From IMG/VR virus record IMGVR_UViG_2541047915_000012: a stretch of DNA of 38,067 nt, one strand, 5' to 3'. The stretch is from a virus. Lineage: Duplodnaviria; Heunggongvirae; Uroviricota; Caudoviricetes. The notes under the pieces are model-generated. The model searched no databases. It had not been told where the DNA came from and saw nothing but the letters and a program-made list of their open reading frames with translations. The position numbers and the translations under genes were made by a program. Shown piece after piece: positions 31,563 through 33,123 of the stretch (positions are counted from its first letter, which is position 1; each line of letters starts with the position of its first letter).

Positions 31563-31808
31563 ATGACAGTAGTCATTACATATCTGGCTGACGATAACGC
31601 CAGAAATCGCCGCAGAGCACGCAGACAGGCTCAACGTGAACAGGCGATGCAAGAACAGCGACTGGCGCGAAAAATTGCGCTAAAGCTCTCTGGTTGCGTC
31701 AGAGCGGATAAAGCAGCATCACTCGGAATCCTTCGCTGCAAGAAGGCAGATGAAGTCGAGAGTAAACAGAATCGTATTTACTACCGCAAGCCACGCAGTG
31801 AAATGTGA
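31563..31808 (+). CDS. N-like transcription antiterminator, C-terminally truncated by IS911 copy 3 (stop codon supplied by the IS terminal TGA)
   Basis: ATG at 31563 with GGAGG RBS; N-terminal arginine-rich motif DDNARNRRRARRQAQREQ; downstream of pL/nutL; reading frame would continue 18 more codons past the IS (GVTCVGRQKMKLGSKPLI*). Confidence 0.6.
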   Translation: MTVVITYLADDNARNRRRARRQAQREQAMQEQRLARKIALKLSGCVRADKAASLGILRCKKADEVESKQNRIYYRKPRSEM

Positions 31809-31877
31809 AGTGGTTTACTGAATTTGGCCACCTGAACAGAGGTGATATGCTCACCTCAGAACAACACAGGTGCCATA

Positions 31878-32180
31878 ATGAAAAAAAGAAATTTCAGCGC
31901 AGAGTTTAAACGCGAATCCGCTCAACTGGTCGTTGACCAGAATTACACCGTGGCAGATGCAGCCAGCGCTATGGATGTCGGCCTTTCCACAATGACGCGA
32001 TGGGTGAAACAATTACGTGATGAGCGGCAGGGAAAAACACCAAAAGCCTCCCCTATTACCCCGGAACAAATTGAAATCCGTGAGCTCAGGAAAAAGCTAC
32101 AACGTATTGAAATGGAAAATGAAATATTAAAAAAGGCTACCGCGCTCTTGATGTCAGACTCCCTGAACAGTTCTCGATAA
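31878..32180 (+). CDS. orfA: IS911 OrfA
   Basis: Identical translation to copy 1 OrfA. Confidence 0.85.
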
Positions 32181-32206
32181 TCGGGAAACTCAGGGCGCGT
32201 TATCCT

Positions 32207-33025
32207 GTGGCCACTCTCTGCCATGTGTTCGGGGTCCATCGCAGCAGCTACAAATACTGGAAAAACCGTCCTGAAAAGCCAGACGGCAGACGGGCTGTAT
32301 TACGCAGCCAGGTACTTGAACTGCATGGCATCAGCCACGGCTCTGCCGGAGCAAGAAGCATCGCCACAATGGCAACCCAGAGAGGCTACCAGATGGGGCG
32401 CTGGCTTGCTGGCAGACTCATGAAAGAGCTGGGGCTGGTCAGCTGTCAGCAGCCGACTTACCGGTATAAACGTGGTGGTCATGAACATGTTGCTATCCCT
32501 AACTACCTTGAACGGCAGTTCGCCGTGACCGAGCCAAATCAGGTGTGGTGCGGTGATGTGACCTATATCTGGACGGGTAAGCGCTGGGCGTACCTCGCCG
32601 TTGTTCTCGACCTGTTCGCAAGAAAACCAGTGGGCTGGGCCATGTCGTTCTCGCCGGACAGCAGGCTTACCATGAAAGCACTGGAAATGGCATGGGAAAC
32701 CCGTGGTAAGCCCGTCGGGGTGATGTTCCACAGCGATCAAGGCAGTCATTATACGAGCAGGCAGTTCCGGCAGTTACTGTGGAGATACCGGATCAGGCAG
32801 AGTATGAGTCGGCGTGGAAACTGCTGGGATAACAGCCCAATGGAGCGCTTCTTCAGGAGTCTGAAGAACGAATGGGTGCCGGCGACGGGCTATGTAAGCT
32901 TCAGCGATGCAGCTCACGCAATAACGGACTATATCGTTGGATATTACAGCGCACTAAGACCGCACGAATATAATGGTGGGTTACCACCAAACGAATCGGA
33001 AAATCGATACTGGAAAAAACTCTAA
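32207..33025 (+). CDS. orfB: IS911 OrfB
   Basis: Identical translation to copy 1 OrfB. Confidence 0.85.
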
Positions 33026-33123
33026 CTCGGTGGCCAGTTTTTGTTGACCACTTCAATGGGTGTGACTTGTGTTGGTCGCCAGAAAATGAAATTAGGCAGC
33101 AAACCACTTATTTGAGGTGATAT

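Follow-up and report, generated by a model that had tools for sequence, protein, structure and literature searches.

What becomes of a prophage when an insertion sequence (IS) lands in the gene for its early antiterminator, and does the loss of a short C-terminal tail silence the protein or only weaken it? The question is raised by the virus record IMGVR_UViG_2541047915_000012, a 38,067-nt stretch of tailed-phage DNA (hereafter, the window), in which an open reading frame (ORF) resembling the phage N gene runs directly into an IS between positions 31563 and 33123. An earlier note, made from the sequence alone, had proposed that a copy of IS911 truncates this N-like gene and supplies its stop codon, that antitermination should be abolished by analogy with lambda N, and that the IS is polar on the downstream pL operon. 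The truncation and the identity of the gene hold up, and the two functional claims give way to a milder prediction. At a probability of roughly 80%, we favour a recent IS insertion that truncates N, produces a partially defective allele, and represents one step in the decay of the prophage.

Anatomy of the insertion

The interrupted gene and its immediate junctions comprise the following features.

31563..31805, + strand: 5' part of the N gene, 81 codons, with the arginine-rich motif (approximately residues 13-26) and the central region in common with phage 21 N
31803..31805: left copy of the target-site duplication, ATG (a direct repeat; a single ATG stands at the empty site of Escherichia coli S88)
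31806..33055, + strand: IS3-family IS of the IS911 group (RefSeq name ISEc52), copy 3; 1,250 bp, with ends TGAAGTGG...CCACTTCA
33056..33058: right copy of the target-site duplication, ATG (direct repeat of 31803-31805)
33059..33115, + strand: orphaned 3' end of N, 18 codons (GVTCVGRQKMKLGSKPLI) and the natural TGA; homologous to lambda N 90-107

Read from the sequence and by script, the N ORF begins at the ATG at 31563, with a GGAGG ribosome-binding site (RBS) 6 nt upstream, and continues through 81 sense codons to 31805. The first three bases of the IS, TGA (31806-31808), then form codon 82 of the N frame, and the product is 81 amino acids (aa) long (hereafter, N81). The earlier note had the gene ending at codon 81, which is correct for the translated codons; the stop itself is codon 82. 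When 31806-33058 is removed in silico, the frame remains open for the 18 further codons to the TGA at 33113-33115, giving a protein of 99 aa. This natural stop begins 11 nt upstream of the next ATG (33124) and is overlapped by the RBS of that gene, GAGGTG; the 18 extra codons had thus been counted correctly, and the 11 nt, previously measured to the RBS, is the distance to the ATG. Otherwise the described anatomy, with an ORF running into the IS, a TGA stop, an ATG duplication and a restorable frame, is found position for position.

Because both ends of the element read TGA inward, any insertion placed immediately after a full codon (one frame in three) creates an immediate stop, and the donation of a stop codon by the IS is unremarkable. 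The alternative parsing of the junction as a 4-bp duplication (AATG) around a 1,249-bp element was ruled out: copy 2 of the same IS also ends in ...CACTTCA before unrelated DNA.

The interrupted gene belongs to the N family

Judged by sequence, the interrupted ORF is an N-family antiterminator. The restored 99-aa protein matches PHROG 271, "anti-termination protein N-like" (E=2.9e-36), and a translated search of phage genomes recovered uninterrupted ORFs in the P22-like phages IME10 and HZ41 (98% identity over residues 1-99) and in phage N7 (92% over residues 1-97). With the N proteins of HK620, mEp213 and ECP1 the restored protein shares 95-100% identity over residues 1-64, and with phage 21 N 92% over residues 37-99. 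Against lambda N, BLASTP aligns residues 65-99 to lambda 74-107 (54% identity, E=4e-10), and in this alignment the insertion point falls between residues 89 and 90. The sole convincing sequence match in the PDB is 6GOV chain N (lambda N in the antitermination complex), to query residues 63-99. Toward the N-terminus, residues 13-26 (ARNRRRARRQAQRE) align to the arginine-rich motif of lambda N and are predicted to bind boxB; residues 34-64 are near-identical to phage 21 N and align poorly to lambda N, in which the NusA-binding region is residues 34-47.

The truncation is equally clear from the homologs. Every full-length homolog found runs 18-20 residues beyond the insertion point and none ends there, and all of them, those with replaced tails included, keep an 18-20-residue tail with a basic Q-K/R-rich core. 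The motif GxTCxGRQKxK within the family is conserved from lambda to phage 21 N. Relative to the C-terminal tail of lambda N that interacts with RNA polymerase (residues 73-107), the ORF in the window stops at the equivalent of residue 89, and the restored gene has the full tail. The excision and alignment that the earlier note had suggested thus return a protein with N-family similarity, and its N-like label is further borne out by the position of the gene, the first after pL, and by the paired nut sites described below.

The tail is also where related genes vary. Phage mEp235 (PV340540.1, 493-798) and Stx1-converting phages encode a phage 21-type N with a different tail (...IYYKDSNPLGNKIHAVQKIKLYSKLPYGAC), and a remnant of the canonical 3' end of N (NLIYYSKPRSEMGVTCVGRQKMKLGSKPLI; 1172-1261 in mEp235) persists approximately 370 bp downstream, behind an inserted 110-aa gene. 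These replaced tails mark the region around N residue 70 as a natural mosaic joint and the tail as an exchangeable module.

Promoter and nut sites

Upstream of the gene, the control elements expected for an N operon are in place.

31134..31162, + strand: candidate pL promoter, TTGACC-17 nt-TAAATT, within P22-type operator repeats; the only promoter-like site in 31000-33700
31209..31249, + strand: nutL, with boxA GCTCTTTAACA (31209-31219) and the boxB hairpin TCCCGC-CGAAAT-GCGGGA (31232-31249; 6-bp stem, 6-nt loop)
30074..30117, - strand: nutR, which lies between cro and cII and repeats the boxA and boxB of nutL; inverted repeats with nutL of 19 nt (100% complementary) and 18 nt (89%)

The gene order is a P22 c2-type repressor (30391-31041), operators with pL (31086-31163; operator-like repeats at 31105-31125 and 31143-31163), nutL, and N at 31563, and the same layout of repressor, pL, nutL and N occurs in S88 and phage N7. 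Since boxA GCTCTTTAACA and a 19-nt boxB, which folds into a stem of 6-8 bp with a 6-nt loop, are identical in nutL and nutR, the inverted boxA/boxB pair is the expected cognate nutL and nutR. The boxB specificity should differ from that of phage 21 and lambda because the arginine-rich first 36 residues belong to the HK620/mEp213 type.

The leader between nutL and the N start contains 205 bp (31343-31547) that are absent from phage N7 and differ in sequence in IME10. This segment carries a second boxA-like sequence, TGCTCTTTC, followed by the hairpin GCCCCTC-AGTTC-GAGGGGC (31489-31507), which has a 7-bp stem and is not followed by a T-run; the hairpin may be what is left of another phage's nut site, or it may act in leader processing or regulation. 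An Rfam scan found no known RNA family in 31000-33700. The one Rfam match in the window is sar RNA (RF00262, 83.9 bits) at 4205-4271 on the + strand, which marks the P22-type immI (ant/arc/mnt) region.

The element and its copies

Within the IS, two coding features matter here.

31878..32180, + strand: orfA, 100 aa, HTH_Tnp_1
32129..32135, + strand: A AAA AAG slippery site for a -1 frameshift, in the correct frame; the OrfAB product is 382 aa and open to 33025

The transposase reading frame is intact. OrfAB scores 380.6 bits against the NCBIfam IS3 transposase model NF033516 (cutoff 160), and the Pfam families HTH_Tnp_1 and rve are recorded for the same IS genes in GCA_000460795.1. With TG...CA ends, a length of approximately 1.25 kb and a 3-bp target duplication, the element has the features of the IS3 family and IS911 group; its terminal inverted repeats are imperfect, 25 of 36 positions matching between the TGAAGTGG and CCACTTCA ends.

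The name requires one refinement. By the ISfinder naming convention, a copy takes the name of a reference element at a nucleotide identity of approximately 95% or more. Over its full length the IS is 94.2% identical to a Shigella dysenteriae plasmid copy annotated as IS911, it is 98.5% and 95.6% identical to two K-12 fragments annotated as IS911A, and copies identical at 100% occur in many E. coli genomes under the RefSeq label "IS3-like element ISEc52 family". The designation IS911 is therefore right at the level of the group, and the database name of the element itself is ISEc52.

The insertion in N is, as the earlier note had it, the third of three copies in the window (23797-25046, 28338-29587 and 31806-33055), all on the + strand and identical at 1,250/1,250 positions. 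Three identical copies point to recent IS activity. They lie within 9.3 kb (23797-33055) of the early and regulatory region. Such an arrangement suggests that one active copy hopped locally, with the reservation that the agreement in orientation would arise by chance alone one time in four. IS3-family elements generally transpose by a copy-and-paste route.

The empty site and the age of the insertion

The sequences flanking the IS are 100% identical to those of E. coli S88, APEC O1, the type strain ATCC 11775 and many ST95-type genomes, where they abut with a single ATG; the empty-site junction reads ...GAAATG/GGTGTG..., the slash marking the point of insertion. At the DNA level the restored gene is 100% identical to the uninterrupted gene in S88, APEC O1 and ATCC 11775. 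Of 5,426 complete E. coli genomes, 292 contain the uninterrupted gene (at least 80% coverage), with a best match of 100% over 300 nt. More broadly, the three IS copies and one deletion are all that breaks the collinearity of the window with the S88 prophage at tRNA-Arg/dsdC (99.9% identity), and outside these IS-associated changes only six positions differ.

The interrupted allele is scarce by comparison. No complete RefSeq E. coli genome contains the N-to-IS junction, and an exact-match scan of the GTDB species-representative genomes for the 41-nt junction also returned none. Exact protein look-up found the 81-aa product in GCA_000460795.1, a draft assembly that is 100% identical to window positions 28563-34808 and is probably the source, and on six short, independently assembled contigs (Logan) from other sequencing runs. 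Two of these six contigs reach into the IS, by 28 nt (100% identical) and 4 nt. Sequencing runs in which the N-to-IS junction occurs are SRR958635 and its relatives, SRR11427748 and SRR13089953. The insertion is real, rare and recent.

The few differences from S88 deserve mention. Only four are substitutions (25468, 30322, 31130 and 31169). Three of these fall within the 2.2-kb immunity control region: 30322 just 5' of the cro Shine-Dalgarno sequence, 31130 located 4 nt upstream of the pL -35 element, and 31169 at approximately the pL start site; the fourth, 25468, is in the Q gene. Their clustering could reflect regulatory selection, a small recombination patch or chance. Another difference is an extra C at 36048, inside a gene that RefSeq marks in S88 as a frameshifted YfdS-family pseudogene, and the window may carry the intact YfdS-family form.

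Consequences of losing the tail

N proteins are divided among three functions: the arginine-rich motif binds boxB, the central region binds NusA, and the C-terminal region binds RNA polymerase (PMC3526286, PMC8632103). N81 would retain the first two and approximately half of the third. In lambda, removal of residues 91-107 or 81-107 leaves read-through at nutR/tR1 at 36.0% and 35.1%, respectively, against 38.0% for wild type, and only the removal of residues 73-107 reduces it, to 7.3% (Muteeb et al. 2012, PMC3526286 Table 1). The last 14 residues of lambda N are likewise reported to be dispensable (Franklin 1992, J Bacteriol 174:8144, as cited in PMC3526286). Tail deletions at distant and intrinsic terminators are reported for H-19B N only (PMC3526286 Table 1 and Table S1). 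There, a terminator beside nut is little affected (wild type 34.2%), a second, distant Rho-dependent terminator is read through at 1.4-12% versus 31.8% for wild type, and an intrinsic terminator at 12.6-21% versus 42%; this is a 2- to 20-fold loss at distant Rho-dependent and intrinsic terminators, and not a null. The expectation that truncation should abolish antitermination is thus at odds with the wild-type-like activity of the two shorter lambda deletions, and by analogy a partial processivity defect is the better prediction.

Which terminators N81 would meet depends on the DNA beyond the IS.

33124..33594, + strand: pL-operon gene that follows N; 156 aa, matching no family; its RBS (GAGGTG) shares bases with the natural N stop
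33699..33726, + strand: candidate tL1, hairpin GCCCTCCAGTGTGAGGGC (33699-33716) and then a T-run; the first site past N that resembles an intrinsic terminator

Beyond candidate tL1 lie erf, an anti-RecBCD gene and, last, torI/xis.

The sequence of events that we favour is as follows. The recipient prophage is P22-like (Lederbergvirus) and of the type that E. coli S88 carries at tRNA-Arg beside dsdC, and an active IS3-family, IS911-group element (ISEc52) appears to have transposed into its N gene. The element landed exactly after codon 81, duplicating ATG, so that its leading TGA halts the N frame. The resulting N81 keeps the arginine-rich motif predicted to bind boxB and the central region, the counterpart of which in lambda N binds NusA (PMC3526286, PMC8632103), and lacks the 18-residue tail equivalent to lambda N 90-107. 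Such a protein probably still assembles at nutL and nutR and blocks Rho close to the nut sites; at terminators that are distant or of the hairpin type, candidate tL1 (33699) among them, it is probably 2- to 20-fold weaker. For the pL genes, the distance to pL and nutL would at the same time have grown by 1.25 kb. Given a weakened N81 and this displacement, expression of the recombination genes and xis should drop after induction, with the genes past candidate tL1 (erf, anti-RecBCD and torI/xis) likeliest to suffer. The insertion in N is one of several recent hits by a single active IS.

Alternative readings

A harsher outcome, in which the truncation is a complete N null and the IS is strongly polar, would silence the whole pL operon and the N-dependent pR genes after induction. 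The lost tail is part of the RNA-polymerase-binding region of N, and the H-19B tail deletions fall to 1.4-12% at the distal terminator. Truncation may also speed the degradation of an intrinsically disordered protein, and most ribosomes would presumably leave at the orfA stop, so that approximately 850 nt of orfB are poorly translated, a classical setting for Rho polarity, although this last argument, drawn from IS3-family biology, is weak. On the other side are the lambda 91-107 and 81-107 deletions, as active as wild type at nutR/tR1, the reported dispensability of the last 14 residues of lambda N, and the 12.6-21% that H-19B tail deletions still achieve at the intrinsic terminator. The IS itself offers little to polarity: it is oriented in the direction of pL transcription, a simple terminator scan found no intrinsic-terminator-like site on its + strand, and the mostly positive GC skew of orfB leaves no C-rich, G-poor (C>G) tract of the kind that Rho prefers. 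Polarity of the IS is therefore plausible and, in the form in which it had been asserted, unsupported; we regard the combined null and polar outcome as unlikely.

The opposite possibility is that the insertion is near-neutral, with N81 roughly equivalent to the 99-aa protein and N-modified polymerase transcribing through the IS. The same lambda deletions and the same lack of a terminator-like site on the + strand of the element can be cited for it, and other sequences stand in place of the tail in mEp235 and N7, such that the exact sequence of the tail is not fixed. Against it, every homolog keeps a tail with the basic core and none stops at the insertion point, GxTCxGRQKxK is conserved from lambda to phage 21, and H-19B N needs its C-terminal domain at distal and intrinsic terminators. 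On balance we consider near-neutrality distinctly improbable.

A more speculative proposal is that a promoter of the IS itself, outside the control of the prophage repressor, reads out rightward across the right end of the element, where no + strand terminator is predicted. The lysogen would then express the 156-aa gene at a low constitutive level (and erf, the anti-RecBCD gene and others if transcription passes candidate tL1). Alternatively, since N81 retains the parts for binding RNA and NusA, it could serve as a nut-site decoy against infecting phages with the same boxB specificity (HK620/mEp213 type). If true, the insertion would rewire the pL operon as well as break the N gene. We hold this to be very improbable. 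A separate candidate, an outward hybrid promoter starting from TTGACC (33044-33049) in the right IS end, was rejected: no acceptable -10 element lies at 16-18 nt, and promoter scans report none.

Finally, a collapsed or misplaced IS repeat in a draft genome with N intact in the strain is scarcely credible, for although the probable source is a draft assembly and three identical copies within 9 kb invite misassembly, a perfect 3-bp duplication surrounds a complete IS and the same junction recurs on independent contigs from other runs (28 nt and 4 nt into the IS).

Several points nonetheless weigh against a partially defective N allele as the explanation. The restored protein scores 19.4 bits against Pfam N_peptide (PF25694), under the gathering score of 27.9, and has no match among the NCBIfam models searched, so that membership of the N family is argued from PHROG, pairwise homology and genomic context. 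The lambda 91-107 and 81-107 deletions were plasmid-expressed proteins assayed at nutR-tR1 only, the size of the N81 defect is an extrapolation from an H-19B N tail that differs from the one N81 would have lost, and the activity and expression of N81 are themselves predictions. In addition, the order of the three IS events is not recoverable from one genome.

Other lesions in the prophage

The truncation of N should be considered together with the remaining two IS copies.

23797..25046, + strand: IS copy 1, with an ATA duplication; approximately 207 nt downstream of a candidate late promoter, between the Q and holin genes
28338..29587, + strand: IS copy 2, with no target duplication (GCCT-IS-GTTC); replaces approximately 3.56 kb of the S88 prophage (S88 locus 32623-36178)

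On one side of copy 1 is the holin gene (23094-23417), on the other the Q gene (25267-25785, - strand). A strong promoter-like site at the end of Q, TTGACA-18 nt-CATAAT (25289-25260), is the candidate late promoter; copy 1 lies in the late-operon leader, antisense to late transcription.

Lost beside copy 2 are the genes for the replicative helicase and the replication protein, two small genes, and portions of ninB and of a further small gene. The gap is due to an IS-mediated deletion or to recombination between two copies, and a missing duplication beside an IS copy is known to be a sign of IS-mediated rearrangement (PMC11708052). Because the replication protein and helicase genes are deleted, the prophage cannot replicate or grow lytically whatever the state of N. 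The earlier note had treated the lesion in N by itself; the truncation is real, and it sits in a prophage that also lacks the replication genes beside copy 2.

One further difference from S88 is an extra A: at 8254 the window has A8 where S88 has A7, which splits the gene for a P22-gp16-family DNA ejection protein into ORFs at 7105-8082 and 8243-9121. The extra A could be a real frameshift or a homopolymer sequencing error.

Significance and comparison with known systems

An IS insertion in N is an ordinary step of prophage decay, of an already known kind and with no new mechanism, and it opens no long-standing question. Its main use is in annotation and in predicting prophage viability. We propose that this prophage be classed as defective, given the truncated N, the deleted replication genes and the interrupted late leader. 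Likewise, the intact 99-aa gene, which RefSeq calls a "hypothetical protein" because NCBIfam gives no match, can be named an N-type antiterminator with a defined nutL and nutR. The interrupted allele is a natural equivalent of the lambda N 91-107 deletion and could be used to study the share of the tail in processive antitermination by a phage 21-type N.

The element compares closely with IS911/ISEc52 (IS3 family, IS3 group) in its 1,250-bp length, TGAAGTGG ends, 3-bp duplication, orfA/orfB A AAA AAG -1 frameshift and IS3 transposase match; it differs in its 94.2% identity to the Shigella dysenteriae copy annotated as IS911 and in the RefSeq name, ISEc52, of its identical copies. The interrupted protein, like lambda and phage 21 N, is small and basic, has an N-terminal arginine-rich motif, and is encoded by the first gene of the pL operon with cognate boxA/boxB sites after pL and cro. 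Its residues 37-99 follow phage 21 N (92%) and its last 35 residues lambda N 74-107 (54%), whereas its N-terminal 36 residues are of the HK620/mEp213 type and its last 18 are lost in the window.

Relative to the engineered C-terminal deletions of lambda N and H-19B N, the natural truncation, at lambda 89/90, falls within one residue of the lambda 91-107 deletion. Those deletions were plasmid-expressed and assayed on reporter terminators, whereas here a natural allele on a phage 21-type N backbone is followed by a 1.25 kb IS. Lastly, IS-inactivated and cryptic lambdoid prophages of E. coli, such as those riddled with IS629 in O157:H7 and CP4-6 of K-12 with its IS911A/IS30 nest, share with this prophage a pattern in which repeated IS insertions and the deletions that go with them knock out regulatory, replication and late functions while most of the prophage remains. 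Unlike in those prophages, decay here is very recent, with six differences from the S88 prophage outside the IS copies and the deletion.

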